Shown: positions 2,654 through 62,536, counted from the stretch's first letter. The stretch is 64,000 nt of DNA from Patescibacteria group bacterium (GCA_024239055.1 JANBVJ010000001.1:1277-65276); one strand, 5' to 3'. Notes: generated from the sequence alone by a model not told the origin. A program made the numbers and translations.

Positions 2654-2822
2654 TTGCTTGACACTATTTCTTAGATAATGTAGGATATACGTTAGTTTGT
2701 ATATATACCTTTTTCAGTAAGCTATTATATTTTGCTTACCTCTGATCATCCCAACAATTAATATTTTCATTATGCAGGACCCTCCTGCTTTGTAAGGGTA
2801 TTTTTCGTTTGCAAATCACTAA

Positions 2823-5800: not shown

Positions 5801-6056
5801 ATGGGCTTTAGAAGGATATGGAGCGGCCTTTACCCTGCAAGAGATGCTTACTATTAAGTCAGATGATGTACCAGGAAGGGCTTCTACCTATGAATCAATC
5901 TTAAAAGGGAAGCCAATACAGACTCCGAATCTTCCGGCATCCTTTAATTTGTTATTGAATGAGCTACGCTCACTTTCGCTAGATGTTGAGATAAAGGAGC
6001 GTGCAGGGGCTCGAGTAAGAAGAGAACGAGAAGAAAAAGAAGCTGACAAAAAATAA
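2823..6056 (+). CDS. rpoB: DNA-directed RNA polymerase subunit beta
   Basis: 1077-aa ORF with canonical RpoB blocks ([70 protein letters not shown]). Confidence 0.97.
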
Positions 6057-9574: not shown

Positions 9575-9598
9575 ACATCATCGTGTTATACTAAAGTC

Positions 9599-33915: not shown

Positions 33916-34605
33916 ATGGGATATGCTGGGAAATTAGAGCTACAAGATAAGGCGCGGCGTTTAAGAGAGGCTGGTTTTTCTATTCAAACTATTGAGAATA
34001 AACTTAGAGTTTCTCGTTCTTCAGCTAGTATTTGGGTTCGAGATGTTCCATTAACAAAAAAGCAGATTGAGAGACTCTATTTGAATAAGAAAACGGGAGG
34101 TTTAAAAGGAAGTTTCATAGCATCAGAAAATAAGAAAAGAGCAACTAAGGAATCAATCAGAAAGTTTACTGAGAAAGGAATAAAGGATGTTGGAAAACTT
34201 TTAAAGCGTGACAGATTTATAGCTGGTATTGCTTTATATTTTGCTGAAGGAACTAAAAGTGGTCGTAGTAATGTATCTTTTAGTAATTCAGATCCTCAGT
34301 CCGTTGTTTTTATGATGAGCTGGTTGAGAGAATTTTGTAATGTTCAAGAAAGCAAGTTTCGTTGTAGTATATATCTTCATGATAATTTGAATGAAAATAA
34401 AGCAAAGAGATTTTGGGCAAAAATTACTCATATACCCCTTGCACAATTTCGAAAAACGTATATTGTAGAAAACAGGAAAAATAGGTTACGAAGAACAAAA
34501 CATGAATATGGAGTATGTCGAATAACAGTAAGTAATACTATCCTACATAGGCGAATAATGGGATGGATAGCAGGGCTATTCCAAAATATAGATATTCCGC
34601 GGTAG
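33916..34605 (+). CDS. Hypothetical protein with an N-terminal HTH and a LAGLIDADG-like motif (possible free-standing homing-endonuclease-like or regulatory protein)
   Basis: 229-aa AT-rich ORF. The HTH-like segment is ARRLREAGFSIQTIENKLRVSRSSASIWV. The segment FIAGIALYFAEGTKSGRSNVSFSNSD resembles the LAGLIDADG helix plus acidic residue plus beta-strand. Its last 10 nt overlap tRNA-Asn. The function call is tentative. Confidence 0.45.
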   Translation: MGYAGKLELQDKARRLREAGFSIQTIENKLRVSRSSASIWVRDVPLTKKQIERLYLNKKTGGLKGSFIASENKKRATKESIRKFTEKGIKDVGKLLKRDRFIAGIALYFAEGTKSGRSNVSFSNSDPQSVVFMMSWLREFCNVQESKFRCSIYLHDNLNENKAKRFWAKITHIPLAQFRKTYIVENRKNRLRRTKHEYGVCRITVSNTILHRRIMGWIAGLFQNIDIPR

Positions 34606-34667
34606 CTCAACGGTAGAGCAGAGGATTGTTAATCCTTTGGTTGCAGGTTCGAATCCTGCCCGCGGAG
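34596..34667 (+). tRNA. tRNA-Asn (anticodon GTT), no encoded CCA
   Basis: TCCGCGGTAGCTCAACGGTAGAGCAGAGGATTGTTAATCCTTTGGTTGCAGGTTCGAATCCTGCCCGCGGAG. The acceptor stem is TCCGCGG/CCGCGGA, the anticodon loop is TTGTTAA, and the T-arm is GCAGGTTCGAATCCTGC. Confidence 0.92.
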
Positions 34668-34707
34668 CAAACCTTGACAGGGAGTTGAAAAGTAGTACTT
34701 TGAGTTA

Positions 34708-34826
34708 AAGGGTAGGATGAGTTAAAATCTCGCTGTTTACGGGAAGTGTCAAAAATACGCTCCCCATCATGAGGACTAGCGGGGGTAAAACGAACCTCGA
34801 CACTTCTCATCCTACCTTTTTTCTTT
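34708..34826 (+). ncRNA. Orphan structured small-RNA candidate (~120 nt), family unknown
   Basis: TTGACA at 34674-34679, then a 16-nt spacer and TACTTT. The transcript would begin near GGGTAGGATGAG. The closing stem GGGTAGGATGA/TCATCCTACC stacks on GAAGTGTC/GACACTTC and is followed by TTTTTTCTTTTT. There is no plausible ORF on this strand. Confidence 0.4.
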
Positions 34827-34942
34827 TTATACGAAGTTTAGCTCTCCCGTTTCTCTCTTAATACTAACCCAATCTAGAGTTCTAAACTTGTTCAGTAGGG
34901 GGAGCAAAATATTGACAGTACCATAGAAATATGGTATTGTTT
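34817..34942 (+). repeat. Promoter-module repeat, copy 1 (subfamily A)
   Basis: T-run, CT-rich tract ...CTCTCCCGTTTCTCTCTTAATACTAACCCAATCTAGAGTTCTAAACTTGTTCAGTAGGGGGAGCAAAATA, then TTGACA (34912-34917), a 17-nt spacer GTACCATAGAAATATGG, and TATTGT (34935-34940). Confidence 0.85.
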
Positions 34943-34987
34943 TTGTAAGATCTTTACAACTAGATTCATATGTGAAAGGAGTCTTTG

Positions 34988-35755
34988 ATGGCTTTGAAAC
35001 GAATTAAACAGATAAATACAGAGTCAGTTACTAGACTTCATGCTAGAGTCTGGGGAGACTTTTCCAAGATTGATGGTGAGGTTCATTATATCTATGGCGA
35101 TGTCTCTTGTATAACTGGCCATGTCTCTAATCCAAGAGATGATACCTTTGGTCTCTTTGGTGATGTTTCTAATCTCAGTGGCGATGTCTCTAATATAAGA
35201 GGAAAGATCTCTTATAATCTCAGTGGTGATCTCTCTGGTCTAAGTGGCGATGTTTCTAAACTTAGTGGCGATGTCTCTGAGATAACTGGCGATATTGGTC
35301 TTGAAGGTGATGTCTCTGGTCTAAGTGGCGATGTTTCTAAACTTAGTGGCGATGTCTCTGAGATAACTGGCGATATTTCTGGTCTCAGTGGTTATGTTAA
35401 TAATTTCACAATCTGGAATAATAACCTTGATATAACTGGTGATGTCTCTGAGATAACTGGCGATATTTCTGGTCTCAGTGGCGATGTCTCTGGTCTCAGT
35501 GGCGATGTCTCTCGTATCAAAGGTGATGTCTCTGGTATCAGTGGCGATGTCTCTCGTATCATTGGAAATGTCTCTGCTATCAGTGGCGATGTCTCTCGTA
35601 TCATTGGAAATGTCTCTGCTATCAGTGGTGATGTTTCTAAACTTAGTGGCGATGTCTCTGGTCTCACCGGTGATGTCTCTGAATTAAGTGGTGATGCCAC
35701 TAACATTGTTGGAGACGTGACTGACTTGAAAGGTTCTATTGAGGACCTTACATAA
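34988..35755 (+). CDS. Protein built almost entirely of 7-residue repeats (consensus GDVSxLS)
   Basis: ATG at 34988 preceded by AAGGAG; the track starts 3 nt earlier at TTG. About 30 consecutive heptads read (S/T)GDVSx(L/I). There is no signal peptide. I recognise no family. Confidence 0.7.
   Translation: MALKRIKQINTESVTRLHARVWGDFSKIDGEVHYIYGDVSCITGHVSNPRDDTFGLFGDVSNLSGDVSNIRGKISYNLSGDLSGLSGDVSKLSGDVSEITGDIGLEGDVSGLSGDVSKLSGDVSEITGDISGLSGYVNNFTIWNNNLDITGDVSEITGDISGLSGDVSGLSGDVSRIKGDVSGISGDVSRIIGNVSAISGDVSRIIGNVSAISGDVSKLSGDVSGLTGDVSELSGDATNIVGDVTDLKGSIEDLT
35090..35700 (+). repeat. 21-bp-period coding tandem repeats with longer exact internal duplications
   Basis: Exact 64-bp copies lie at 35233-35296 and 35314-35377. 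Exact 41-bp copies lie at 35351-35391 and 35441-35481. A perfect 42-bp tandem duplication spans 35539-35580 and 35581-35622. Confidence 0.9.
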
Positions 35756-35803
35756 GAGAAAGTTCCTTCATAAAACAAAGAACTCAAGGTAATCTTAATT
35801 ACC

Positions 35804-35842
35804 AACCGCTTTAACCTTTTGGAGGATGAGCGGTTTTCTTTT
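35804..35842 (+). terminator. Intrinsic terminator of cassette 1
   Basis: AACCGCT ... AGCGGTT stem followed by TTTCTTTT, running into repeat copy 2. Confidence 0.55.
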
Positions 35843-35956
35843 ATATAAAGTTTAATTCTTTCATCTCTCTCTTAATATTTATCCAATCAAGAGTTCTGAA
35901 CTTGTCCAGTTGGGGGAGCCAATTATTGACAGTATCATTAAAGCATGGTACTGTTA
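35834..35956 (+). repeat. Promoter-module repeat, copy 2 (subfamily B)
   Basis: TTTTCTTTTATATAAAG...TTATCCAATCAAGAGTTCTGAACTTGTCCAGTTGGGGGAGCCAATTA, then TTGACA (35926-35931), a 17-nt spacer GTATCATTAAAGCATGG, and TACTGT (35949-35954). Confidence 0.85.
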
Positions 35957-36102
35957 GTAAGTTCAATTTAAGAAACCGCTTATACGGTTTATCGAGGAGA
36001 CTAAATTATTTTACTATTTATAGTTCCATTGTTTAGGAATGTATGTGATCTCCTTAATATTGTTTGAGGAGTTTTTTATTGGGCTAAATTTACAAATTAT
36101 AA

Positions 36103-37896
36103 ATGGAAATACGAAACATAGCTATTATTGCTCATGTTGATCATGGCAAGACTGCGCTTACCGATGCTATCTTAAAGCAGACAGGAGCTTCAGATGGTGA
36201 AGTAAGTATGGATTCAGACACACTCGAGAAGGAGCGTGGTATTACGATATATTCAAAAAATGCTTCTGTAATATATAACAATACGAAGATTAATATTGTA
36301 GATACTCCTGGGCATGCAGACTTTGGTTCTGAAGTAGAGCGCATACTGCGTTCTATTGATTCTGTACTATTAGTTGTGGATGCTGCTGAGGGACCAATGC
36401 CACAAACACGTTTTGTACTTAAAAAGTCTTTGGAGCTTGGATTAAAGCCCATATTAGTAATTAATAAGATTGATAAACCAACTGCAGATATAGATTGCGT
36501 ACATAATGATGTATTTGAGTTGTTCTCAGAGCTTGGTGCAACAGAAGAGCAATTAGATTTTCCTGTAATATATGGAGTTGCGAGAGATGGAATAATGAAG
36601 AGTGACATGAATGACGAAGGAAAAGATATAACCCCAGTATTAGATATGATATTAAAGCATGTGCCAGTTGCATCAAAAGATATGGATAAACCATTTCGTG
36701 CACAACCATTTAACTTAGCGTATGATAATTTCTTGGGAAGATTGGCTATTGTCCGTGTATATAGTGGAAGTGTTACAGTTGGAGATACCATCTTTGTAAG
36801 AAAGCCAAGTGGAGAGACTACGAGCCATAAAGTAATAAAGTTATTTACCTTTGAAGGAATTGAAAGAAAGGATGTAGATATAGTAGAGGCTGGAGATACT
36901 GCTATTATTGCAGGACTTCCTGATGTATATATTGGAGATACTCTAGGAAAGTCTGAGGATACAGAATTACTTGAAGGTATTTCAGTAGATGAGCCTACTA
37001 TTGAACTTACATTTTTAGTGAATGATTCTCCTTTTACTGGAAGAGAAGGAAAGTTTGTTACAAGTCGTCAGATACGAGAGCGTCTAGAAAAGGAATTAGA
37101 AGTAAACGTAGGATTGAAGATTGATTTTGATTCAGAGTCTGCAGAAAAGTTTGTTGTATATGGAAGAGGAGAACTTCATGTTGCTATTTTAATTGAGAAT
37201 ATGCGAAGAGAAGGATATGAACTTCAGGTTTCACAACCCCAAGTTATTATTAAAGAAATTAATGGAGTAAAGTCAGAACCATTTGAAGAGGTAATAGTAG
37301 ATATTCCAGAAGAGTTTCAGGGAACAGTTATTGAGAAATTATCTACTCGTGGAGCGAAAATGATGGATATGGAATTAAAAGATGGACGTGCCTTTATTCA
37401 GTTTGAAGGACCAAGTCGTGGTTTATTTGGATATAGAAATCAGTTTGTTGTAGATACAAAGGGAACTGGAATTTTAGCAACTCGTGTAATTGAGTATCGC
37501 GCGCATGTAGGAGAGATACCACATAAAAAAGCGGGATCTATGATCTCTGGAGTTACTGGCAAGACTTTAGGTTTTTCATTAGATAATCTTCAGACTAGAG
37601 GAACTTTATACATTAAAGAAAATACTGAGGTGTATGAGGGTATGGTTATTGGAAACACATCTAAAGGAGAACAGATGACTGTAAATCCTACAAAAGGAAA
37701 ACAGCTTACAAATATGCGCTCTTCATCTTCAGATGAAGCAATTAATCTTATAAATCCTCAGTTCATTACAATTGAGACTGGTCTTGAGATAATGGATAGA
37801 GATGAATATTTAGAAATTACACCAAAGAACGTAAGATTGCGGAAGAAGTATCTTACAGAAAATGATAGAACAAAAGCAAAGCGTGAAAATAAATAA
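36103..37896 (+). CDS. typA: Translational GTPase TypA/BipA
   Basis: 597-aa ORF with NIAIIAHVDHGKTAL (G1), DTPGHADF (G3) and NKID (G4), with EF-G-like domains. Length is typical of BipA. Confidence 0.93.
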   Translation: MEIRNIAIIAHVDHGKTALTDAILKQTGASDGEVSMDSDTLEKERGITIYSKNASVIYNNTKINIVDTPGHADFGSEVERILRSIDSVLLVVDAAEGPMPQTRFVLKKSLELGLKPILVINKIDKPTADIDCVHNDVFELFSELGATEEQLDFPVIYGVARDGIMKSDMNDEGKDITPVLDMILKHVPVASKDMDKPFRAQPFNLAYDNFLGRLAIVRVYSGSVTVGDTIFVRKPSGETTSHKVIKLFTFEGIERKDVDIVEAGDTAIIAGLPDVYIGDTLGKSEDTELLEGISVDEPTIELTFLVNDSPFTGREGKFVTSRQIRERLEKELEVNVGLKIDFDSESAEKFVVYGRGELHVAILIENMRREGYELQVSQPQVIIKEINGVKSEPFEEVIVDIPEEFQGTVIEKLSTRGAKMMDMELKDGRAFIQFEGPSRGLFGYRNQFVVDTKGTGILATRVIEYRAHVGEIPHKKAGSMISGVTGKTLGFSLDNLQTRGTLYIKENTEVYEGMVIGNTSKGEQMTVNPTKGKQLTNMRSSSSDEAINLINPQFITIETGLEIMDRDEYLEITPKNVRLRKKYLTENDRTKAKRENK

Positions 37897-37897
37897 T

Positions 37898-39112
37898 ATG
37901 TATAATAAAAGAAAATCATCAAGAAACACAAGAGTTGGTCATTCCGCATCCAATAGATTTCGTAGTGGACCCTTAAGGTTTTCTGCAAGAAGAGGTAGAA
38001 CTAAAGCTCCAAAGTTAGATATATCTTCTTTGATTAATAAGGCAGCAGAAGCTACTGCGCCAGATAAGATATTTATTCCAGAAAATTCATTTGCAGACTT
38101 TAATTTAAACTTTAAGTTATTTAAATCCATTGAGAATAATGGATATATTCATCCAACTCCTATTCAAGATAAAATTATTTCTTTGGTCTTGGAAGGAAAA
38201 GATGTAATTGGTTTAGCTAACACAGGAACTGGAAAGACAGCAGCTTTTCTTATTCCTATTATTGAAAAGATTTTAAAAAATCCAAAAGAGCAAGTTCTTA
38301 TTGTAACTCCAACTCGTGAATTGGCTCTGCAGATAGAACAAGAGCTTTATGGTCTTGCCAAGAATATGAGAATATTCTCAGCAACGTGTATTGGCGGGGA
38401 ATATATAGGAATACAGTTAAGAAAGTTACGTCGTCCTAATCACTTTATTATAGGAACTCCTGGACGTCTTATTGATTTAGTTAAAAGGGGGAATCTAAGA
38501 CTGGATGGAGTGCATACAGTAGTGTTAGATGAAGCCGATAGAATGCTTGATATGGGATTTATTAATGACATTAAATTAATAATGGCTTCTGTTCCAGAAA
38601 AAAGACAGACATTATGTTTCTCAGCAACAATGTCAAAAAAGATTGAACTCCTTACTTCAGACTTCTTAAAGAATCCAAGAACAGTTTCTGTAAAGATTAC
38701 GGAGACTCCAAATACTATCGAGCAAGATATTATTAAAGTTCGTAGCTCAAATAAAATGGATGTTTTATATAATTTACTTAAAAAGAATGAATTTAAGAAA
38801 GTTTTAGTATTTGGACGAACAAAACGTGGAGTAGAGAACTTATCACGCGCACTAACAAAACGCGGAATGAAAGTAGAGTCTATTCATTCAGACAAATCAC
38901 AAACTCAGAGAAAGAGAGCTTTAGAAAATTTTAAGACTAATCGTGTGCAGACTTTAGTGGCTACTGATGTTGCTGCTCGAGGAATACATATTAATGATGT
39001 AACACACGTTATTAACTATGAGGTTCCAGAAACCTATGATGATTATGTACATAGAATAGGAAGAACCGGACGAGGAACTCAAAGAGGAAAGGCTTTAACC
39101 TTTGTTGATTAA
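37898..39112 (+). CDS. DEAD-box ATP-dependent RNA helicase
   Basis: The start MYNKRKSS lies at ATG 37898, just after the typA stop; the track ORF starts at 37862, inside typA. Motifs are ANTGTGKTAAF, PTRELA, DEAD (VLDEADRMLDMGF), SAT and HRIGRTGRG. Confidence 0.92.
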   Translation: MYNKRKSSRNTRVGHSASNRFRSGPLRFSARRGRTKAPKLDISSLINKAAEATAPDKIFIPENSFADFNLNFKLFKSIENNGYIHPTPIQDKIISLVLEGKDVIGLANTGTGKTAAFLIPIIEKILKNPKEQVLIVTPTRELALQIEQELYGLAKNMRIFSATCIGGEYIGIQLRKLRRPNHFIIGTPGRLIDLVKRGNLRLDGVHTVVLDEADRMLDMGFINDIKLIMASVPEKRQTLCFSATMSKKIELLTSDFLKNPRTVSVKITETPNTIEQDIIKVRSSNKMDVLYNLLKKNEFKKVLVFGRTKRGVENLSRALTKRGMKVESIHSDKSQTQRKRALENFKTNRVQTLVATDVAARGIHINDVTHVINYEVPETYDDYVHRIGRTGRGTQRGKALTFVD

Positions 39113-39145
39113 AATTGTAGTATTTTAATTTATACACCACTTAAC

Positions 39146-39268
39146 TTTTTTATATAAAAGAAAATATTTCTCTTATTTCTTCTTTAATTCTTATCCAATC
39201 CAGAGTTCTGAACTTGTCCAGTAGAGCGAGCCAATTATTGACAGTATCACAGAGATGTGGTACTTTTG
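39146..39268 (+). repeat. Promoter-module repeat, copy 3 (subfamily B)
   Basis: TTTTTTATATAAAAG...TTCTTATCCAATCCAGAGTTCTGAACTTGTCCAGTAGAGCGAGCCAATTA, then TTGACA (39238-39243), a 17-nt spacer GTATCACAGAGATGTGG, and TACTTT (39261-39266). Confidence 0.85.
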
Positions 39269-39299
39269 CTTTACAAATGATGCAAGGGAGGAGGATTTA

Positions 39300-39857
39300 A
39301 TGCGAGAGATCATAGTGACAGTAGGCCCTCAGGCGTCTGGAAAATCGAGCTTCTGTGAGAGAGTAGTTACACTCGATCCGTTAATTATGTTGGTAAGTCG
39401 AGATACCATACTTACTGAACTCTTCGGAGGAACCTTACTTAGTTCATATACGGATGCACACATGTACGCCCTTGAACAAATGTGGGAAGTTGTTGAAGAG
39501 CAGCTTAAATCTTCTTCTTTGAAGATGATACTCGATACCTGGAATGGATCTTCAGATGAACGGCATCAAATCATTCGCAAGCTCCGATATCTCGGCGCTG
39601 ATCGGATTACTGCTTGGTATTTCGTAACGCCGATAGAGTCGGTTGAAGCATGGTTTTGGCAGAAACCAGGCATTGCGAAAATTGGGGAGATGAGAACACG
39701 AAAAGATGAAGGGTTGGTGTTCTACTTGGAAGATGCCCCTCGACGAGATTATGAGATCTTTCATCGGCTGGCATCGGGAATTACCTCTGAGGGTTTCGAT
39801 GCAATGGTAAAGATCAATCCTCTCGTCATGAGGCCAGAACAGGTAGCTGAGTTTTAG
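39300..39857 (+). CDS. P-loop kinase of the AAA_33 / polynucleotide-kinase-like type
   Basis: The start MREIIVTVGPQASGKSSF is preceded by GGGAGGAGG. The track start at 39255 lies inside the promoter. It has Walker A GPQASGKS followed by SRD and ILDTWN segments in the order seen in PNK-like kinases. The family call is tentative. Confidence 0.6.
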   Translation: MREIIVTVGPQASGKSSFCERVVTLDPLIMLVSRDTILTELFGGTLLSSYTDAHMYALEQMWEVVEEQLKSSSLKMILDTWNGSSDERHQIIRKLRYLGADRITAWYFVTPIESVEAWFWQKPGIAKIGEMRTRKDEGLVFYLEDAPRRDYEIFHRLASGITSEGFDAMVKINPLVMRPEQVAEF

Positions 39858-39926
39858 AAGTAGGATCTCAATAGTTAGTCAAAAAGTGAGGGAAGGCATA
39901 TTGTAAGATTTGTTAGTACCTCGCTC

Positions 39927-40059
39927 TTTTTTTATATAAAACTCAATTCTTTCATTTCTTTCTTTAATTCCCTAATATATCTCCAATCTTCCAGAATTAT
40001 AATAAGGTTTGGACTGGGGAGCCAACTATTGACAATACCATAGAAATATGGTATCCTTT
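39927..40059 (+). repeat. Promoter-module repeat, copy 4 (divergent, with insertion)
   Basis: TTTTTTTATATAAAACTCAATTCTTTCATTTCTTTCTTTAATTCC...GGGGAGCCAACTA, then TTGACA (40029-40034), a 17-nt spacer ATACCATAGAAATATGG, and TATCCT (40052-40057). Confidence 0.8.
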
Positions 40060-40125
40060 TATTAGTAACAGTGAATCTTGTAATACACGCTATTTACAAT
40101 TAATTCAGGGAGAGGAATAAGGACC

Positions 40126-40311
40126 ATGATGTTTTTCGCAGCAGTATTTTTGTTGATAAACGCTGCTCTCTGTGGCGCAGTTATCGGCTCAAGCTGGGGT
40201 GGTAAAGCGAGTATTCTGGCTTTCATAGGATACCTGATTATAGAGTCAGCGATTCTCTATTTTCTTCTTAGAAAACCAAACTACTCAAAGTCCTCAACTG
40301 GCAGACTATAA
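40126..40311 (+). CDS. Small two-TM membrane peptide (61 aa)
   Basis: GGGAGAGG lies upstream of ATGATG. There are two hydrophobic helices (FFAAVFLLINAALCGAVIG; ILAFIGYLIIESAILYFLL). A hairpin CTGGC/GCCAG plus T-run overlaps the stop. Confidence 0.5.
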   Translation: MMFFAAVFLLINAALCGAVIGSSWGGKASILAFIGYLIIESAILYFLLRKPNYSKSSTGRL

Positions 40312-40318
40312 ACGCCAG

Positions 40319-40441
40319 TTTTCTTTTACACAAAACTTATCTCTCCCATTTCTTTCTTAATTCTTATCCAATCCAGGGTTCTAAACTTGTTCAGTAGGAG
40401 GAGCCAAGTATTGACAATATCATAGAAATATGGTATTGTTT
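40319..40441 (+). repeat. Promoter-module repeat, copy 5 (subfamily A)
   Basis: ...ATCTCTCCCATTTCTTTCTTAATTCTTATCCAATCCAGGGTTCTAAACTTGTTCAGTAGGAGGAGCCAAGTA, then TTGACA (40411-40416), a 17-nt spacer ATATCATAGAAATATGG, and TATTGT (40434-40439). Confidence 0.85.
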
Positions 40442-40478
40442 ATTTAGTAAAGTAGCGCCTATGATCTAGGAGAGATAA

Positions 40479-40676
40479 ATGATAGTCGTACACACAGAAA
40501 AAGGCGTTCTTCAAATTATTCAAGTGGATGATACCACGGTGCAGGTATTTCTTTCTGGTACCGAAGATCTTCTCGTCGAATGTGAAGAGATTCACATTAC
40601 GAGTAAGGAAATTACTGGTGTCGGCAATCTTGGATCGATCTGGAGAGCACAGTTAGTAGAGGCGGTGGATGGATAA
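40479..40676 (+). CDS. Small hypothetical protein (65 aa)
   Basis: TAGGAGAG lies 5 nt before the ATG. The protein is acidic and beta-rich. I recognise no family. Confidence 0.45.
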   Translation: MIVVHTEKGVLQIIQVDDTTVQVFLSGTEDLLVECEEIHITSKEITGVGNLGSIWRAQLVEAVDG

Positions 40677-40752
40677 ATCTATCGCTTTTATTTTTTAGTA
40701 AACATGTTCTAATATCGTGTACTAAAGGAAATAAATAGTGTAGAATCATATT

Positions 40753-40872
40753 ATGTCAAAACGAAGTACAGGACTACAAAAGAAACAGAAGTCTCGCTCA
40801 AAAAAGACTAAAAAACGTCTTGAGATTAAGCGTAAGATGTTAGAGGCAAGAGCTGCTAAAAAGAGCAAGTAG
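40753..40872 (+). CDS. Possible very basic 39-aa protein (below the ORF-track cutoff)
   Basis: My own translation is MSKRSTGLQKKQKSRSKKTKKRLEIKRKMLEARAAKKSK. TAGAAT lies 6 nt upstream of the ATG and there is no SD, so it is possibly leaderless. The evidence is weak. Confidence 0.3.
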   Translation: MSKRSTGLQKKQKSRSKKTKKRLEIKRKMLEARAAKKSK

Positions 40873-41035: not shown

Positions 41036-41269
41036 ATGGCACAAGGAACAATTGCTCGACTCACTGACCGTGGTTTTGGCTTCATTACACCTGAGGACGG
41101 AGAGAAAGATCTTTTCTTTCACTCTAACGAACTTCAGGGTGTTGAATTCAATGACTTGAAGGAAGGTGACAAGGTAACGTATGAACTTGGCGAGAGCCCT
41201 AAGGGCCCTAACGCCACAAGCGTTGCTAGAGCTGATGCTGACGCTGCACCTGCAGCTGACGCCGAATAA
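41036..41269 (+). CDS. cspA: Cold-shock domain protein (CspA family) with a short acidic Ala/Asp tail
   Basis: 77-aa ORF with RNP1 RGFGFI and an RNP2-like LFFHS. The 5' UTR is long, from TTGACA-N17-TAGTAT at about 40914. Confidence 0.93.
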   Translation: MAQGTIARLTDRGFGFITPEDGEKDLFFHSNELQGVEFNDLKEGDKVTYELGESPKGPNATSVARADADAAPAADAE

Positions 41270-50785: not shown

Positions 50786-50930
50786 TACACAAGGTCTTTA
50801 AAACTATTGTTGTTCTGGGGAAGGAGATGTGAGTTCTCCACTACCCCGTAACGGTGATGATGCTTTTGGCATCTTAGTCCGGATACCAGGCAACAGATTA
50901 AAAACATTTAAGTAACAATCCTTCGAGGGA
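50786..50930 (+). promoter_or_regulatory. Cobalamin riboswitch (ends approximate)
   Basis: The conserved core is CTGGGGAAGGAGATGTGAGTTCTCCACTACCCCGTAACGGTGA (50815-50857), matching the GGGAA...GUGA..CC...CCCCGxAACxGU pattern. A B12-box-like AGTCCGGATACCAGGC lies at 50876-50891. The 5' TGTTG and 3' CAACA can pair as P1. It ends at the GGGAGGGG RBS of the next gene. Confidence 0.75.
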
Positions 50931-50936
50931 GGGGAT

Positions 50937-51422
50937 ATGTGGCTTTCTGCAATTCTGCGGTATTTTGGCAGAAGTGCGGCAACCCTCTCAATTCCCTTGG
51001 GAGTTTTTCTTTATATGATTATACGTATTTTTGGTTTAGTTTTACTAGTTCTTTTTGCAGGGGCTGTACTTTTGATTTCTGGGCAGATTGGTCAAACTGA
51101 TAGGACATTGGAGAATGTCCTAGGGACAGACATTGCAGTGATCCTTGAGACAGAAGAAACAAGATATGAGGTTACCATACCTCAAGGGAGCTCGGTGTTT
51201 GATGTGATGCAGACGGCACAAGACCAGGGTTTTACGTTTGCAGGGAGAGAGTTTTCAGGTCTTGGGTTTTTTGTAGAGGAGATAGAAGGTAAGCGTCAGA
51301 ATCCAAAAGAGCGAATGTATTGGATTTACTATGTGAATGGCAAGAAGGCTCAAGTCGGAGTTTCCTTATATATTATTGAAGATAATAACGTAATTACATT
51401 TAAGTATGAAGAAATGGAATAA
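50937..51422 (+). CDS. Membrane-anchored DUF4430 (transcobalamin-like C-terminal domain) protein
   Basis: 161-aa ORF with an N-terminal TM segment. The DUF4430 signature reads SVFDVMQTA...GFFVEEIEGKRQNPKERMYWIYYVNGKKAQVGVSLYIIEDNNVITFKY. Confidence 0.75.
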   Translation: MWLSAILRYFGRSAATLSIPLGVFLYMIIRIFGLVLLVLFAGAVLLISGQIGQTDRTLENVLGTDIAVILETEETRYEVTIPQGSSVFDVMQTAQDQGFTFAGREFSGLGFFVEEIEGKRQNPKERMYWIYYVNGKKAQVGVSLYIIEDNNVITFKYEEME

Positions 51423-53400
51423 TGGTGTGAAGATAGGGGGGTTAATTATTATTGGGCTTTTGTTCTGGGGGACGGCTCACGCAGATGTTACATTCTCAAT
51501 AAGGTATGAGGATAATTTGTTCATTGATGCGGTCACGGTTGCATTGCCAGTAGGGGATACTGTATTTTCAGCAGTAGACAGCAGTACTGGTGATCCTGTT
51601 GACGTTACTATATCAGCAGACACTGTCTTGGGAGTATTGAGTGCGATTGACGATACAGATGATGGATTTTCTATATCAATTCCTCTTATCTACTATTCAT
51701 CATTTGATTCTCTCTTTGTGGAGTGTATTGAGGTTGATGGGGTTAATGCCTGCAATAACTGGCTGTATGTAGTAAATGGAGTAGCTCCTGATGTAGGAAT
51801 GGATAAAACAACTCTTGCGGATGGAGATGTCATATTTGTCTATTTTGGCCCTTCTCGTAGAGTAGTTCTTTCCCGGTCAACCGTAATCGTAGGAGGGTCG
51901 TTTGAGGCAACAGCTCAAGATTACCAATATGAGGATAACACATGGGATTCTTTGGCGGGTGTTACTATTGGCGTGACGCAGCCAGATCCGGATAATCCAT
52001 GGTCTCCAATTGAGATTGTGCTTCAGGCTGTGGATGAAGAAGGAGTAGCTACCTTTAAGATTTCAAATGCAGGATCATATAACGTAGGAATTCGAGATGA
52101 GTGGGGAGGTTATTTCCCAACAGTTTCACTTACGATTCAGGCACAAGGTGGAGGGGTTGCGCCTTCGCATAATACATTGAATGTAGAAAAAGCAATTGAT
52201 TTTCTCTCTCTGTATCAACAAGAGAATGGCTCTATGAATGATTCTGCACTCTTGAGCGACTGGACAGCTCTGGCATTTGGGGCGTACGAGGGTGTAAATT
52301 TCAGCAGGGAGGAGTTAAAGAACTATCTTCTTTCTGATCCAAGTCCGGGAAGCAGGATCACTGATTACGAAAGGAGGGCTATGGCTTTACTAGCACTTGA
52401 TATTAATCCGTATTCTGGAACTGATACCAATTATATTGCAAAGATACTTGATTCCTTTGACGGAGAACAGTTTGGAAATCCTGAGTTTGTGAACGATGAT
52501 ATCTTTGCCCTCTTTGTTTTACTGCGGTCTGGGTATACAGATACAGATCCAGTTATTCAGAGTACTGTTTCCTCAATAGTTGCCTCACAATGGCAAGACG
52601 GTTCATGGGATAGCGTGGACATGACGGCAGCCGCAGTTCAGGCATTATCTCTTACTCCTTTAAATGAAGGTGTTTCATTTGCGTTGTATCAGGCCAAGAA
52701 TTACTTAAAGCAGGCGCAGGAGGAAACTGGAGGGTTTGGAAACGTCTATTCTACTTCTTGGGTGCTGCAAGCGCTGCACGTGCTTGAACAGGATGAGATC
52801 TGGTGGCAGAAGGGCAACCATACGCCTGGAGATTATCTGTATTCAATGCAGGCAGAAGACGGAGGGATGAATGAATTGGATACTCTTAGTAATCGCATCT
52901 GGGCTACAGCGTATGCTGTTCCCGCATCCATGGAAAAGACATGGGGAGATATACTCTTTAGCTTTGGAAAGCCCGTGAACACAGAAGAGGTATTGGTATT
53001 GTCTGAAGAAATAGAGGAGCCTTCTATGTCATTTGACGAAAAGCAGGTTATTCTTTTGGGGATTAAGTCAGAGTTAGACGTGATTTCCCAAAAGGTTGCT
53101 GTTTTGGAGCAAGAGGTTCAGCTTTTATTGGATGCTTATTCACCTAGATACTTAGCTGAGGTAGAAGAGGTAGTTATTGCTCAAGAACCCAAAGAAGAGG
53201 AAGAAATACTTTTGGCTGGAGTTACTATACTGCCAGAATCCGATATCTTTACAGCTTCTGCTGTTCAAAGTACTAGAGGCTTGTTATTATCTCAGATTTT
53301 CATTTGGGGTATTCGTATAGTACTGGTAGCGTTCTTTTTATACCTGGTCTTTTTGTTGGGCAGGGCGGTTGCTGCAAGGCGTAGTCTGCTGCAACAATAG
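51406..53400 (+). CDS. Secreted, C-terminally anchored protein: DUF4430 domain, Ig-like domain and prenyltransferase/terpene-cyclase-like alpha/alpha toroid
   Basis: 664-aa ORF with a signal peptide (LLFWGTAHADV) and a DUF4430 domain (...CNNWLYVVNGVAPDVGMDKTTLADGDVIFVYF). QW-like repeats (QQENGSM, SQWQDGSWD, QEETGGFG, MQAEDGGM) are typical of the alpha/alpha toroid. It also has a coiled-coil segment and a terminal TM helix. Confidence 0.7.
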   Translation: MKKWNNGVKIGGLIIIGLLFWGTAHADVTFSIRYEDNLFIDAVTVALPVGDTVFSAVDSSTGDPVDVTISADTVLGVLSAIDDTDDGFSISIPLIYYSSFDSLFVECIEVDGVNACNNWLYVVNGVAPDVGMDKTTLADGDVIFVYFGPSRRVVLSRSTVIVGGSFEATAQDYQYEDNTWDSLAGVTIGVTQPDPDNPWSPIEIVLQAVDEEGVATFKISNAGSYNVGIRDEWGGYFPTVSLTIQAQGGGVAPSHNTLNVEKAIDFLSLYQQENGSMNDSALLSDWTALAFGAYEGVNFSREELKNYLLSDPSPGSRITDYERRAMALLALDINPYSGTDTNYIAKILDSFDGEQFGNPEFVNDDIFALFVLLRSGYTDTDPVIQSTVSSIVASQWQDGSWDSVDMTAAAVQALSLTPLNEGVSFALYQAKNYLKQAQEETGGFGNVYSTSWVLQALHVLEQDEIWWQKGNHTPGDYLYSMQAEDGGMNELDTLSNRIWATAYAVPASMEKTWGDILFSFGKPVNTEEVLVLSEEIEEPSMSFDEKQVILLGIKSELDVISQKVAVLEQEVQLLLDAYSPRYLAEVEEVVIAQEPKEEEEILLAGVTILPESDIFTASAVQSTRGLLLSQIFIWGIRIVLVAFFLYLVFLLGRAVAARRSLLQQ

Positions 53401-58513: not shown

Positions 58514-58671
58514 TGAGCCACACGGCTTATTTTGTTTAGCCGAGATCCTTGACAACTGAATAGGGAGTCAAGACAAAAAAGGAAAGTGTAATGCTTCCCA
58601 AAATACCTTTGTCCAGCCCTTTGGCTGGTAACGTAACAACAGTGGAAAAGAACCTAGAGAAAGGAACGAAC

Positions 58672-61600
58672 ATGATCAGAAAGAAGTTTGTCCGATACGC
58701 GGTTTTGTTTGCCATGCTGCTCTTGCTCCTCAGCGGAGGGAGAACGGTTCTGGCTGCCAGTATGACCGTCGACAACACCATCGCTTGCGATGATGTGGTC
58801 GGTTTACCGTACTGCACGATTCAGGCCGCGGTTGATGACGCAGCGCCCGACGACACGATTAACGTCGCCGCAGGGACTTACGTTGAAAACGTCATCGTTG
58901 ACCTGGCACTCACCTTGCAAGGGACGCCGGGCGCCACTATTGCACCGGCTACGGGTGTCGGAGTGGAAATCCAGGCTTCAAGCGTCACGGTTGATGGTTT
59001 CACCATCAACACTTGGGGCTTGAATGCTCATGGTGTCTGGATCAGCGTGAGTGCTACAAGCCTTACTTTGACCGGAAACGATATCGTGATAGACGGCTAC
59101 TCTACCGCTATCTACGCGGATGCAGGAGTTTCTCAGACTGTTAAGAGTTCTGGGTGGACTATCTCCGGCAATACTCTGAGCGCCGCCGTCGGGGTCAACC
59201 TTGAGCTCTACGATGTTGACGCGGTGACGGTGGATGACAATGTCTTCGGTATTACTGCGGGCAGTAACGTCATCGTCAGTAGCGAACTTTTTGACCTGAC
59301 CGGAATTGCCTTCACCAACAACGATGTCCAGGGTAACAACGGTGGGAGTATGGTGGCATTCGTCACTGACTTCCAGGGAATAGCTCTAGGAGGAATCGTA
59401 CGTAATGATGGTATTCTTACCGCCATGGACGACGTCACCGTCGCGGGCAATACGTTCGCTGGCTGGGATAGCCGCGCCCTGCGCTTCGGGGATTGGGGGA
59501 ATCCTGTAACGAACGTTGTGGTGAACTCCAATATCTTCAATATGAGTGTAGACTCAGAAGTTATTGGGGGAGCTGACGCAGGAAGTGCGACAGGAGCAGG
59601 AAACACATTCAACGTCCAGGTGCCAGCAGAAATACAGGACGCGATAGATTCAGCGTTCAGTGGAGATACGGTCAACGTGGCTCCAGGAACGTACGACGTA
59701 GGCTTGCAGATCATCAGCAACGACATCCAGATCGTTGGTGATGCGGGTAATAAACCGGTAATTCGTCCGATCGCGGATATTACCGGAACTGGAGCTGCTG
59801 AGGACGCTTGGTTCTTAGTTGAGCCGAATGTCACATTCAGCCTCGCTAGTGTTGTGCTGGACGGTGATGGGTTTTGGGTCTGGCAGGCCATCCGTTCGCA
59901 TGGTAACACTTCCATTAGTAACGTCGACTTCCGCAACATACGCGGGAGTGTAGACGGTTCACCCTACAAGGGTATCGCCGTATCTAGTTACGGCGGCATC
60001 GTTGCAGGAGGTGTTGGCAGTGATAGCCACGGTGGTGAGGGCGACTTGTCCAGCAACCTGTTGGTACTCAACAGCAGCTTTGTGCAAATCGGTCGCATCG
60101 GCGTGATAGTGAAGGGTACTGGATCGGCCGCCGAGATTATCGGCAACACCTACACGGGCAAAGGTGACGGGGACTTCCTCGACTATGCCTTTGAACTTGG
60201 TGGTGGCGGCCTTGCGGCCATCAGTGGAAACACCATTACCGGCAACCGCGGTGTGGCCCTAGTTGACGGCTCGACCTCGGCTGGCGTTCTGGCGACGACG
60301 TACTGGTGTCTAACGCTCCCAGACTGCGTTACCACCGCCTTAATCGAAGACAACTCCATCACCGGCAACACGGATGGCGTTCACATAGGTTATGCTCCGG
60401 GTCCCGCCGACACAAGTGTCGTCACGATCCACCGCAACAACCTTAGTGGCAACACCGCATTCGCCGTCATCAGCACGGACGCGGTTGTGAACTCCACCGA
60501 TAACTGGTGGGGTTCTGCGAACGGTCCGAGCCATGAGTCCAACACGTTCAACGTGGAGGCACAGGGCGACGCGGTCAGCGACAATGTTGACTTCGTGCCT
60601 TGGCTGGACGCTTTGGACGGCGCTCCATTCGCTCCCGTAGTAAACGACGAGAGCGAGTCCTACACCTCCATCTCGGCCGCCATCAACGGCACCGAGGCCG
60701 GAGGTACGGTTACTGCGTCGTCAGGAACGTACGTCGAATCCTTGGTCATCGCCAAGCCGCTCACGTTGCGTGGGCCGAATGCGAGCATCAGCCCGCATTC
60801 GGAATCGCGGGTCGCGGAAGCGATCATCACTGGAGTGTCACCGTTAGTCCAGTTGCCGTCTGAAGCGAATGTGAATCCGCTCATAATCGAAGGGTTCACA
60901 TTCCAAGACACGACTGGCTCCGGGGCCGTAATCTACGCGAACGGCGAAAGCGATGGTTGGGGCAACGTCACAATTCGTTCCAACCGTTTCATGGACAACT
61001 ACGGACCGGCCATCGGTGTCTGGACCTCGACCTTGAACGAGCCAATCAACCCAGCCAACTGGACAATCAGCGACAACCTCATCAATGGAGTGACGGGACC
61101 GAGCAGATCAGGTATATACCTGGCTCTGGCTAACCCTGAGGATGTAGCTACCGAGTTTAGTGGTTGGGAGATCAGCAACAACAGGATCAGGAACACCCAA
61201 TACGGCGGAATCATGGTCCATGGCGCGGTTGACATGCTCATCTCCGGAAACATCGTCGAGGACGTCCAGAAAACGGGCATCCAGTCATCGGGGATACAGG
61301 GGAACGTGACGATTACGGATAACCTGATTCTCAGAGCGATGTTGGCTAGTGAATCGGGTCCTATTAGGGCTGGTATCCGCCTCTACGGTACGGACCCCAC
61401 AGACGAGTATGGCGAGAGTCAGCTCATCGGTCCGGTATGGGTGACCGACAACGTCGTCGAGCAATCCTACATTGGGTTCGCAACCAAGAGCGGCCATGAC
61501 TACCCCAGCGAGTTGGTCCACGTCAACGGCAACAGCTTCGTGGGGAACATCGAAGCCGGCCTTCTCCACAACGGTAACGGTCTCTTCGACGCAAAAGGCA

Positions 61601-62352
61601 ACTGGTGGGGAACCGCCACGGGTCCGAGCGGTGAAGGGCCGGGACAAGGAGATGCCGTGGGACCAGGAATCAGCTTTGAACCCTGGCTCACCCGGCTTGG
61701 CTTCCAAGTGACTCTTAGTAATGAGAGCTACCTGGGATTCGGCTACCAGCTTAACGCCGGATGGGAAACCTTTTCCATCCCGGTGTGGGCGGAGAACGAA
61801 ACGTTCTTCGGAGCTTGGGAAGTCCTTTGGACGGACATGGAAGGGAACCCGGGTCCCGAAGAAGGCGGAATACCGGTACCCCGACTGAGCGGCCTTGTTA
61901 ACGAGGCCATAGTGGAAATCGCGTACCGCTTCAACGCGGCAACGCAGGAGTGGGAGCAAATCCTTGACGTAGACACCCTCTCACCCTTTGAAGCTGTGTA
62001 CGTGAAGTCACGAGTGGCGCACGCAGCGTCCCTCAACGTAACGCCGGACCTCACAAGTCCTCCCACCTACCAGTTGCAAGCCGGCTGGAACTTGGTGGGG
62101 ATGACGCTTGATCCTCTTGGGTCTGGCACCATGGCGGTTCCCGAAGCCTTCATCAGCGCGTACGACGCGCCCGGAGGTATAGGGTACCTGCAGGTCTTCA
62201 GTCCGGCAGTGAACCCGACCACGTTTGCGTGGGCACGGGACAGTGCACAAGACCCAATCCCTCAAGTGGAAATCGGGAGGGGCTACTGGGTCTTCATGGA
62301 AAACCCTGACACGATAGCAGGGTTCAGCTCAACTCCATTAACTCTGGAGTAG
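58672..62352 (+). CDS. Large secreted right-handed parallel beta-helix (NosD/CASH-type) repeat protein with three beta-helix modules
   Basis: The start MIRKKFVRYAVLFAMLLLLLSGGRTVLAA is a signal peptide; the track ORF begins 27 codons earlier. Three modules each open with I(Q/S)xAIxx...GDT(I/V)xVAxGTY. NWWG(S/T)AxGPS motifs recur. G+C is high and third-position G/C is frequent. Confidence 0.8.
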   Translation: MIRKKFVRYAVLFAMLLLLLSGGRTVLAASMTVDNTIACDDVVGLPYCTIQAAVDDAAPDDTINVAAGTYVENVIVDLALTLQGTPGATIAPATGVGVEIQASSVTVDGFTINTWGLNAHGVWISVSATSLTLTGNDIVIDGYSTAIYADAGVSQTVKSSGWTISGNTLSAAVGVNLELYDVDAVTVDDNVFGITAGSNVIVSSELFDLTGIAFTNNDVQGNNGGSMVAFVTDFQGIALGGIVRNDGILTAMDDVTVAGNTFAGWDSRALRFGDWGNPVTNVVVNSNIFNMSVDSEVIGGADAGSATGAGNTFNVQVPAEIQDAIDSAFSGDTVNVAPGTYDVGLQIISNDIQIVGDAGNKPVIRPIADITGTGAAEDAWFLVEPNVTFSLASVVLDGDGFWVWQAIRSHGNTSISNVDFRNIRGSVDGSPYKGIAVSSYGGIVAGGVGSDSHGGEGDLSSNLLVLNSSFVQIGRIGVIVKGTGSAAEIIGNTYTGKGDGDFLDYAFELGGGGLAAISGNTITGNRGVALVDGSTSAGVLATTYWCLTLPDCVTTALIEDNSITGNTDGVHIGYAPGPADTSVVTIHRNNLSGNTAFAVISTDAVVNSTDNWWGSANGPSHESNTFNVEAQGDAVSDNVDFVPWLDALDGAPFAPVVNDESESYTSISAAINGTEAGGTVTASSGTYVESLVIAKPLTLRGPNASISPHSESRVAEAIITGVSPLVQLPSEANVNPLIIEGFTFQDTTGSGAVIYANGESDGWGNVTIRSNRFMDNYGPAIGVWTSTLNEPINPANWTISDNLINGVTGPSRSGIYLALANPEDVATEFSGWEISNNRIRNTQYGGIMVHGAVDMLISGNIVEDVQKTGIQSSGIQGNVTITDNLILRAMLASESGPIRAGIRLYGTDPTDEYGESQLIGPVWVTDNVVEQSYIGFATKSGHDYPSELVHVNGNSFVGNIEAGLLHNGNGLFDAKGNWWGTATGPSGEGPGQGDAVGPGISFEPWLTRLGFQVTLSNESYLGFGYQLNAGWETFSIPVWAENETFFGAWEVLWTDMEGNPGPEEGGIPVPRLSGLVNEAIVEIAYRFNAATQEWEQILDVDTLSPFEAVYVKSRVAHAASLNVTPDLTSPPTYQLQAGWNLVGMTLDPLGSGTMAVPEAFISAYDAPGGIGYLQVFSPAVNPTTFAWARDSAQDPIPQVEIGRGYWVFMENPDTIAGFSSTPLTLE

Positions 62353-62375
62353 AAAGAGAAAGGAAATTCACAAGG

Positions 62376-62426
62376 GGCTGCGGTCGAATCGGTTTAACTA
62401 CCGACCGACTGCAGCCTCTTTTTTTT
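62376..62426 (+). terminator. Intrinsic terminator after the beta-helix gene
   Basis: GGCTGC-GGTCG ... CGACC-(GACT)-GCAGCC followed by TCTTTTTTTT. Confidence 0.7.
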
Positions 62427-62434
62427 GCTATTAC

Positions 62435-62463
62435 TTGACAAAATTGAGATATGGTTCTATAAT
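62435..62463 (+). promoter_or_regulatory. Consensus promoter of the last gene
   Basis: TTGACA (62435-62440), 17 nt, TATAAT (62458-62463). Confidence 0.6.
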
Positions 62464-62536
62464 GTCTATGTGTCCTTTGACAACCTAGACAAATCTAAGA
62501 ACCGACAACAATCCAATTCCTACAAAGGAGGAACCC

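Follow-up and report, generated by a model that had tools for sequence, protein, structure and literature searches.

In the 64,000-nt stretch of Patescibacteria group bacterium DNA analyzed here (GCA_024239055.1, JANBVJ010000001.1:1277-65276; hereafter the window), one tRNA-Asn gene is followed by a series of small, co-oriented units, which are separated by direct repeats of about 120 bp. We propose that this series is a tRNA-anchored, integron-like array, whose mini-cassettes each bear a promoter and are exchanged through recombination at the heptamer GGAGCCA; we give this reading a probability of roughly 60%. It builds on the anatomy of the junctions, their conservation in several lineages, the presence or absence of units at exact boundaries, a step in divergence against the closest relative and the independent assortment of the two cassette ends, all of which were observed directly. 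From these observations, we infer a site-specific mechanism with a circular intermediate.

An earlier note on this DNA had reported five direct repeats downstream of the tRNA. The repeats, ∼125 nt in length, were recovered at the same sites, and none further was found in the 64 kb, by both a repeat-family search (34820-34947, 35834-35961, 39146-39273, 39990-40068 and 40319-40446) and a search with the promoter-core pattern. TTGACA, a 17-nt spacer and TGG-TAnnnT are present in all five copies, as the note had it; the core pattern gave 5 matches in the window, against 0.09 expected. With a score cut-off of 9 of 12, the promoter scan listed copies 1, 4 and 5, each flagged for the TG before the second hexamer; copies 2 (TACTGT) and 3 (TACTTT) fell below the scan score, and their TGG-TAnnnT was taken straight from the sequence. 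The alignment of the five copies has a mean column identity of 67%, with one block, GAGC.AA.TATTGACA.TA.CA(N8)TGGTA, invariant throughout. The conserved upstream part is confined to the modules, in line with the note, with 4 matches for CCAATC.AGRGTTCTRAACTTGTYCAGT against 0.00 expected and copy 4 being a variant. The similarities among the copies needed correction. Copies 1 and 5, put at 85-90% by eye, are 84% identical; copies 2 and 3, named as another closest pair, do not stand out as such, being 67-78% identical both to one another and to copies 1 and 5. Copy 4 had been described as merely carrying an insertion; its left part is in fact a different junction type, which is also present in other genomes.

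The ∼120-bp module is best read as a seam, in which the right end (RE) of one cassette meets the left end (LE) of the next. The seam is split at GGAGCCA, which corresponds to the tRNA-Asn 3′ end plus CCA; the left ∼85 nt form the RE and the right part is the LE, consisting of a promoter with one covarying hairpin. The RE is assigned to the upstream gene because it flanks a lone cassette on the right in another genome (L052) and is missing to the left of the typA cassette in the relative L055. The claim that the same promoter module heads each unit therefore holds for the right part, which is the promoter of the downstream gene, but not for the left ∼85 nt. The array is composed of the following parts (sequences from other assemblies carry L numbers; A to D denote RE types).

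34596..34668, + strand: tRNA-Asn(GTT), the anchor of the array (ARAGORN; Rfam tRNA, 74.3 bits).
34669..34907, + strand: cassette E1, with a promoter, a structured RNA of ∼110 nt and a right end (from its fold, its flanking 8-mers and its absence from L055).
34817..34940, + strand: junction 1 (copy 1), B-type right end, core 34901-34907, hairpin promoter 34912-34940.
34988..35755, + strand: E2 cargo, heptad-repeat protein with a 21-nt period (Pfam LPP-like, coiled-coil; 21-nt repeat families).
35834..35954, + strand: junction 2 (copy 2), B-type right end, core GGAGCCA 35915-35921, hairpin promoter 35926-35954.
35955..39112, + strand: E3 cargo, typA leader, typA/bipA (36103-37896) and DEAD-box helicase (37898-39112) (Pfam).
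39146..39266, + strand: junction 3 (copy 3), B-type right end, core CGAGCCA 39227-39233, hairpin promoter 39238-39266.
39300..39857, + strand: E4 cargo, AAA_33 (PNK-like) kinase, GC 0.45 (Pfam).
39927..40057, + strand: junction 4 (copy 4), D-type right end, core GGAGCCA 40018-40024, hairpin promoter 40029-40057.
40126..40311, + strand: E5 cargo, predicted membrane peptide of 61 aa (open reading frame list; no Pfam or PADLOC match).
40319..40439, + strand: junction 5 (copy 5), B-type right end, core GGAGCCA 40400-40406, hairpin promoter 40411-40439.
40479..40676, + strand: E6 cargo, 65-aa protein without family match (open reading frame list, Pfam, PADLOC, PHROGs).
40690..40735, + strand: A-type junction in degenerate form, AAACATGTTCTAATATCGTGTACTAAAGG, where the array probably ends (read from the sequence against L059 and L054, which have A-type junctions).
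40753..40872, + strand: gene of a 39-aa lysine-rich protein (homologue beside typA in L090).

The degenerate junction at 40690..40735 scores below the threshold of the junction-profile hidden Markov model. The regular RE reads, from left to right, TTTATATAAA, a CT-rich tract, CCAATC, GTTCTRAAC, GTYCAG and GGGGAGCCA; its tail mimics the T-loop, the acceptor strand and the CCA of tRNA-Asn. The cores around E1 are GGAGCAA, and all others in the window are GGAGCCA or CGAGCCA. The 3′ end of the intact tRNA-Asn, GGAGCAA (34664-34670), stands where a junction core would be. In copies 2 and 3, the 33 nt located 5′ of the promoter align to the T-loop-to-CCA part of the tRNA-Asn of L055, which has a CAAG/CTTG T-stem; the z-score is 4.2-4.3, and an equal score was reached in 4-6 of 2000 shuffles. 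The likeness suggests that the RE is a mimic or derivative of the tRNA 3′ end, not a pseudogene. Indeed, tRNA pseudogenes in the module were rejected, as ARAGORN and the Rfam tRNA model find the real tRNA alone, and Rfam holds no known RNA family for the module. RNAalifold analysis of 8 RE copies revealed no conserved RNA structure (−1.96 kcal/mol, 0 covarying pairs); the RE motifs (CCAAT, GTTCTRAAC, GTYC and GGGAGCCA) are therefore read as DNA-level signals.

The closest relative, L055, has an RpoD that is 92% identical to that of the window. In L055, the gene order is rpoD, tRNA-Asn, leader and typA; the tRNA-Asn 3′ end, GGAGCCAATTATTGACA, continues into the typA leader and matches the window from copy 2 onward. 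Owing to this arrangement, GGAGCCAA just 5′ of the −35 box can be recognized as the 3′ strand of the tRNA-Asn acceptor plus CCA. Compared to L055, the window has E1 and E2 in addition, lying between two GGAGC(C/A)A heptamers, and L055 thus resembles an empty site. The dnaG and rpoD genes of the two genomes are 80-81% identical in nucleotide sequence and 61-63% identical at third codon positions. For typA, the values are 94% and 87%, respectively, and the typA promoter plus leader is 97% identical. The high-identity block starts at the core (position 35915 in the window and 2699 in L055), and the two sequences are 94-97% identical from there. This step indicates that the typA unit is much younger than its surroundings in one of the two genomes. 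The left contexts of the unit, the tRNA in L055 and the RE of the heptad-repeat cassette in the window, share only ∼9-12 nt, which would be too short for RecA-type homologous exchange. In L090, whose DEAD-box protein is 78% identical, the 39-aa protein gene (89% nucleotide identity) is located immediately 5′ of the typA promoter; in the window it lies five units downstream, so the order of the units differs between genomes. Comparison of the tRNA-Asn locus among relatives, which the earlier note had in mind, revealed that both the number and the content of the cassettes differ (L055, L054 and L059).

The two halves of the seam have separate histories, as their identities are decoupled within the window: the RE of copy 4 is only 52-57% identical to those of the other copies, yet its LE is 79% identical to that of copy 5. 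The copy 4 RE type recurs at the junction of L007/L054 and at the last junction (J8) of L059. With the RE profile, copies outside the seed were found in L056 (E = 9e-9), in the Nealsonbacteria sequence L022 (two, 4e-6) and in L059/L060 (several, including 2e-14 and 2e-9); L052 scored 1e-15, but it is part of the seed alignment. RE types A-D align nearly without gaps, and in 204 kb of Candidate Phyla Radiation (CPR) sequence their joint profile matches arrays only and no loci of ordinary context. A tRNA-Asn gene heads the arrays of three lineages and a tRNA-Gln gene that of L035, and the intact tRNA-Asn directly abuts a cassette promoter in L054/L007, L049 and L055. In L049, the tRNA-Asn end ...GACGGAGCCAA runs directly into CTATTGACAATACC.... 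L007 and L054 are the same sequence, from a Paceibacterota metagenome-assembled genome, in which rpoD and tRNA-Asn are followed at once by a hairpin-type promoter and a 90-aa gene. It continues with one full module, a 186-aa zinc-ribbon gene and a final junction ...GGGGAGCCAAC, in which the RE and core are followed by unrelated sequence, without hairpin promoter. The L056 copy stands just after tRNA-Ile and tRNA-Arg, and carries a canonical TTGACA-N17-TATAAT without hairpin at the same position. The lone cassette of L052 is bounded on the left by a tRNA-Asn fragment, which has a 16-nt exact match to a real tRNA-Asn and ends GAGGAGCCA, and on the right by a B-type RE, which ends GGGAGCCA and is followed by unrelated flank.

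The array of L059 is composed of small co-oriented genes, including those of one methyltransferase, one kinase, one nucleoside deoxyribosyltransferase, one NUDIX protein and many orphans. Its eight junctions are of four RE types (A-D), all with T-loop-like GTTCTAA or GTTTCGAA and ending with GGAGCCA or GGAGCTA. The LE of most L059 cassettes is of another kind, in which a terminator-like hairpin precedes a TTTACT-N17-TGnTAnnnT promoter, and the four RE types combine with the two LE types. The window kinase has a 65% identical homologue in L059, which possesses its own hairpin promoter and RE and has different neighbours; the presence of the kinase unit in two different arrays suggests that the cassette travels as a unit. 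In L022 (1-1540), a 741-bp cassette with hairpin promoter, 85-aa zinc-ribbon protein and RE occurs twice in perfect tandem, and a 55-nt A-type junction-like repeat marks the boundaries in three copies. As for the spread of the module, five copies lie in 64 kb, and the strict hairpin-promoter pattern occurs 1-2 times per matching CPR genome among 185,579 genomes scanned, which agrees in part with the earlier picture of a module confined to the locus.

The LE promoter contains one inverted repeat that was absent from the earlier note. With arms of 10-11 bp, it occupies the spacer between the −35 and −10 ends; it starts with the last 3 bases of the −35 box, runs through the −10 end and reads ACAATACCATA GAAA TATGGTATTGT. 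The hairpin folds in all copies, at −8 to −14 kcal/mol. Among 14 promoters, drawn from the window and from six further CPR contigs, 91% of the cells are paired, and compensatory double changes are present at 4 of the 11 pairs. The covariation score is 0.242, compared to 0.162 for shuffles, and none of 500 shuffles reached it. One-sided changes in the inner stem lead to G.U wobble in 7 cells and to A.C in 1, and 5 of the 14 loops are GNRA tetraloops. The kinase promoter of L059 has kept the stem pairing but lost the extended −10 TG. The covariation and the wobble pattern favour a hairpin of the + strand in single-stranded nucleic acid. At the same time, the −35 box, spacer and TGn plus TAnnnT of a sigma-70-type promoter are present in all five copies by sequence. 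The distance from the −10 end to the start codon is 33-148 nt, with a GGAG-type site before the start, typA with its long leader being the exception. The LE is thus predicted to be an active promoter. The alternative LE of L059 has an explicit terminator hairpin at equal distance from the core, and for this reason the hairpin of the window LE was interpreted as a terminator of incoming transcripts that has become merged with the promoter; it may also be an operator or a recombinase-recognition site. A single-strand promoter, as in plasmid leading regions, was rejected by reasoning, for the hairpin form pairs −35 with −10.

The genome scan for the hairpin promoter gave 44 matches, most of which are ordinary strong promoters in Firmicutes, Spirochaetes and other groups; similarity beyond the pattern was found among CPR matches only. 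Promoters of the form TTGACAATACCA-N-TGGTAT with palindromes of their own were observed in Eubacterium (L012, L016, L034, L039 and L044) and Spirochaetes (L010, L017, L030 and L042); one example of such palindromes from unrelated phyla is ATACCACC-GCAA-GGTGGTAT. A hairpin or operator in the −35-to-−10 spacer may therefore be a recurrent design beyond CPR.

In the proposed mechanism, at least six very small cassettes (0.24-3.3 kb) would have been inserted serially at the 3′ end of tRNA-Asn. Each follows one plan: an LE, whose sigma-70-type promoter overlaps a hairpin, the cargo gene or genes, an intrinsic terminator and an RE. Gain, loss and swap between genomes would proceed by recombination at the shared GGAGCCA heptamer, with the tRNA 3′ end as the attI/attB-like site and the RE-core-LE seam as the attC/attP-like site, and the recombinase would be supplied in trans. 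The LE hairpin would most likely act in RNA as terminator or insulator, stopping transcripts of the tRNA or the upstream cassette where the own promoter of the cassette fires. In L056 (RpoD 81% identical), a mobile island is located after rpoD (2612-9956), and it encodes one large serine recombinase, MmeI-like restriction-modification, one tyrosine integrase, HTH_17 and SpoVG; the island is followed by tRNA-Ile, tRNA-Arg and the junction copy. Its enzymes are candidates for the source of a trans-acting recombinase.

Several observations weigh against an exchanged cassette array. No recombinase or Phage_integrase domain was identified by Pfam on ∼30 of the 46 window open reading frames of at least 110 aa, nor was any recombinase found among the genes called downstream in L001, a second assembly from the same sample, in the six window cassettes, or in the cassettes of L052, L054, L022 and L059. 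Recombinases are only loosely adjacent, in L056 islands and possibly in L052 (one weak recombinase-like C-terminus). The typA-DEAD-box pair resembles housekeeping genes, an unusual cargo for a mobile cassette. Kinase homologues of 56-63% identity are located in ordinary contexts without junctions, and the kinase was dropped as an array marker for this reason. The alignment of the modules to the tRNA-Asn of the window itself is not significant, and the Rfam tRNA covariance model misses the modules even at E ≤ 10; the likeness to tRNA is modest. L055 is a 3.7-kb metagenome contig, and chimeric assembly at the tRNA is possible. Some sequences of the covariation set came from a pattern search in which certain stem positions were fixed, the covarying positions being free. 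The module census covers the 64-kb window of the source contig. Moreover, neither an excised or circular cassette nor an empty site inside a single population was observed, although no search aimed at them could be made.

Three other explanations were weighed. The earlier note had left the choice between cassette capture beside the tRNA and a dedicated regulon. In the regulon, promoter duplication would have copied the module before co-expressed cold or stress genes (typA, DEAD-box helicase and csp), and a dimeric repressor would bind the spacer palindrome as its operator. The −35 box, spacing, TG extension and palindrome are indeed common to all five promoters, and the core promoter is kept from Saccharibacteria to Paceibacterota; TypA, the DEAD-box helicase and a CSD protein are found together, and an RRM protein flanks the L052 cassette. 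However, the ∼85 nt located 5′ of the core belong to the upstream unit and also occur without the hairpin promoter. The arms differ by compensatory changes within one genome, and G.U mismatches prevail, to which a hairpin fits better than a single operator. Duplication also fails to account for the step in divergence at the core and for relatives having other cargo at this locus, and it leaves unexplained the junctions with other promoters or without hairpin promoter and the presence/absence polymorphism. As an account of the whole array, a regulon is therefore improbable; of the two options, capture at the tRNA is the one favoured by the comparative evidence, and a dedicated regulon may still apply to the hairpin promoter part alone, for which the two readings can coexist.

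Recombination of an ordinary kind is the second explanation. The junctions would be portable blocks of homology, swapped in a RecA-dependent manner after natural transformation, and the tRNA-like sequence would have been left behind by old integrations of classical elements, now decayed. This would suit a window without detected recombinase among the scanned open reading frames and junctions that are 70-84% identical over ∼120 nt; the 741-bp tandem duplicate of L022 could come from unequal crossing-over, and tycheposons are documented to accrete in tandem, leaving partial tRNAs and decayed remnants. Against it, the left neighbours of typA (the tRNA of L055 and the RE of the window) share ∼9-12 nt only, and RE types A-D are too diverged for efficient exchange, yet end in the same heptamer. 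The RE motifs are kept across distant lineages without RNA structure, which argues for selection on a DNA site and not for decay. We hold this explanation to be unlikely. An element acting at the RNA level has the least support and is very improbable. It would be transcribed and serve as punctuation of a tRNA-like kind, processed by RNase P or RNase Z, or as a leader or attenuator, with the promoter being coincidental. The T-rich sequence after the hairpin, the GNRA loops (5/14), the wobble-type mismatches and the T-loop-like GTTCTRAA motif plus CCA at the end of the RE are in its favour. It is opposed by the strong terminator before each RE and by the RE itself, in which the consensus energy is −1.96 kcal/mol, no pair covaries and the tRNA covariance model is blank. 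There is no variation in TTGACA, the 17-nt spacing or TAnnnT, and L056 has a canonical promoter in the same place without hairpin. RNA-mediated copying is excluded because the moved unit includes the −35 box. Phage origin was rejected as well, since three IMG/VR scans gave nothing or chance 17-mers without the core.

The cargo of the tRNA-anchored array differs widely in nature, and its GC content ranges from 0.33 to 0.45. As the earlier note had described, Pfam identified one heptad-repeat protein, TypA/BipA, one DEAD-box helicase and one AAA_33 kinase, and gave no match for the 61-aa and 65-aa proteins. The sRNA-like unit that the note had placed after the tRNA corresponds to E1. Its promoter is weak (TTGACA 34674-34679, 16-nt spacer, TACTTT 34696-34701), and its RNA, located at 34706-34818, has a 13-bp closing stem and a T-run. 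The stable fold (−39.5 kcal/mol, z = −4.8) bears out the description, but no Rfam family reached the gathering score. The E1 RNA contains no plausible protein, and no homologue is present in any fetched relative locus; one YrlA-like Rfam match (26.8 bits, gathering score 69) was discounted, as it overlaps the tRNA. E1 is bounded on both sides by the identical 8-nt GGAGCAAA, and the core of its right end is GGAGCAA (34901-34907).

The E2 cargo is followed by a terminator near 35806-35833, and E2 is absent from L055. The heptad-repeat gene contains at least 19 copies of a 21-nt tandem unit. In the assembly L001, the 245-kb scaffold stops inside this gene, indicating that the gene breaks assemblies. 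The E3 genes have a GC content of 0.33-0.36, compared to ∼0.41. The typA leader (35955-36102, ∼150 nt) is 97% identical in L055 and recognizable in L090. It ends in a terminator-like hairpin (36050-36071 plus T-run), ∼30 nt before the start codon, and may be an attenuator or temperature sensor for typA and the DEAD-box helicase. Genes of cold-adaptation type are grouped: those of TypA/BipA and the DEAD-box helicase (36103-39112), a CspA-like protein (41036-41269) and, by the L052 cassette, an RRM protein (3479-3727). The grouping may be a clue to the selection acting on the locus. PADLOC gave no match for any cargo protein of the window and two weak ones (E = 8e-5 and 0.0045) for the 186-aa zinc-ribbon protein of L054; PHROGs gave low-complexity fibre-like matches for the heptad-repeat protein and one weak polynucleotide-kinase match only. 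A defence or phage function of the cargo was rejected on these results, and neither IMG/VR, PADLOC, PHROGs nor the literature provided a functional theme for the cargo.

The surroundings of the array are ordinary chromosome, with SSB, S6, RNase J, UvrA, UvrC, GroEL, DnaG, RpoD and Band_7 genes (Pfam); RpoD homologues place the host in Paceibacterota/Parcubacteria. One orphan open reading frame of 229 aa (33916-34605, GC 0.34) occupies the interval from rpoD to tRNA-Asn, sharing 10 nt with the start of the tRNA; it has no Pfam or PHROG match. This slot is empty in L055, and L007 and L058 have unrelated genes there; variability thus extends to the upstream side of tRNA-Asn. Farther downstream, a cobalamin riboswitch (50791-50908; Rfam RF00174, 44.1 bits, above the gathering score) is located 5′ of the genes at 50937-53400. 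At 58591-64000, the GC content jumps from ∼0.41 to 0.53-0.58; this segment, which encodes one 1253-aa beta-helix (NosD-like) protein, may be foreign.

To our knowledge, CPR bacteria have tiny genomes and few recognized mobile elements, and their acquisition of flexible genes is largely unexplained. If the array is what we propose, it would give a very large share of bacterial diversity a compact means of gaining, losing and exchanging genes. The junction motif would then be a locator of the CPR flexible gene pool in metagenomes, and the assembly breaks at such loci would be accounted for. For the emerging genetics of Saccharibacteria, the LE would offer a putative strong natural promoter and the core a possible insertion site. 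The concept of integron-like arrays would come to include sites of tRNA-end origin and cassettes independent of a shared promoter. More tentatively, the arrays could be a distinct, undescribed exchange system of CPR, integron-like in nature: cassettes with own promoter and terminator and a site mimicking the tRNA 3′ end (GGAGCCA) would be inserted serially behind tRNA-Asn or tRNA-Gln by a recombinase acting in trans, the hairpin would be the tRNA terminator and part of the promoter or a recombinase site in single-stranded DNA, and typA and the DEAD-box gene would circulate between lineages. No prior description of such arrays in CPR was found in the literature searched. The statement of the earlier note that no described element is organized this way was nevertheless too strong, since tRNA-anchored tandem integration is known from tycheposons and integron arrays are laid out similarly.

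IS200/IS605-type elements are single-strand elements that insert 3′ of a short specific sequence and have a hairpin near the element end. The window array shares with them the insertion 3′ of a short sequence, the end hairpin, the one orientation and a wobble tolerance as expected of a single-stranded site. Different from them, no Y1 transposase or TnpB gene was seen here, and the right end has no hairpin and carries a repeat of the target heptamer. In pdif modules of Acinetobacter plasmids and other Xer-exploiting elements, gene modules lie between short sites and the host recombinase acts in trans. The Xer/dif site is 28 bp in length, with two 11-bp arms and a 6-bp centre where exchange occurs, and the sites alternate in orientation. 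The promoter hairpin, with arms of 10-11 bp and a centre of 4-6 nt, has dif-like geometry; however, the deduced exchange point GGAGCCA is ∼8 nt upstream of the palindrome, the sites are direct and their sequence is unlike dif.

The layout resembles that of integrons and CALINs (clusters of attC sites lacking integrases), which hold small, mostly orphan, co-oriented open reading frames and ∼120-bp repeats that share an exchange core; they have a fixed primary site, and their content varies among relatives. In integrons, intI is located beside the array with attI and Pc, attC sites are imperfect inverted repeats (R′′-L′′...L′-R′) with a GTTRRRY core, and the cassettes are mostly promoterless. 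The co-orientation and the one junction per cassette are the same here. Different from integrons, the scanned open reading frames of the window include no intI, the CT-rich RE has neither complementary arm nor attC dyad, and the boundary core is GGAGCCA instead of GTTRRRY. Furthermore, each cassette here possesses a consensus promoter and terminator, and the primary site is the tRNA 3′ end. In Klebsiella, tRNA-Asn genes are reportedly integration hot spots.

Tycheposons of Prochlorococcus insert at the 3′ part of a specific tRNA gene and stack in tandem with partial tRNA copies, remodelling the variable region of a streamlined genome with cargo as plug-in units; they are several kb in size and carry their own tyrosine or large serine recombinase and often replication genes (bioRxiv 10.1101/2020.12.28.424599). 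Among known systems, tandem integration of this kind is the one that the window array resembles most: it likewise starts at an intact tRNA, and its units are separated by repeats resembling the tRNA 3′ end, the likeness beyond the heptamer being weak. Compared to tycheposons, its units are 0.24-3.3 kb in size, have no recombinase and possess one promoter each. In addition to a tRNA-like tail, which is 5 nt longer than the real tRNA 3′ end, they have a conserved non-tRNA right end of ∼50 nt.

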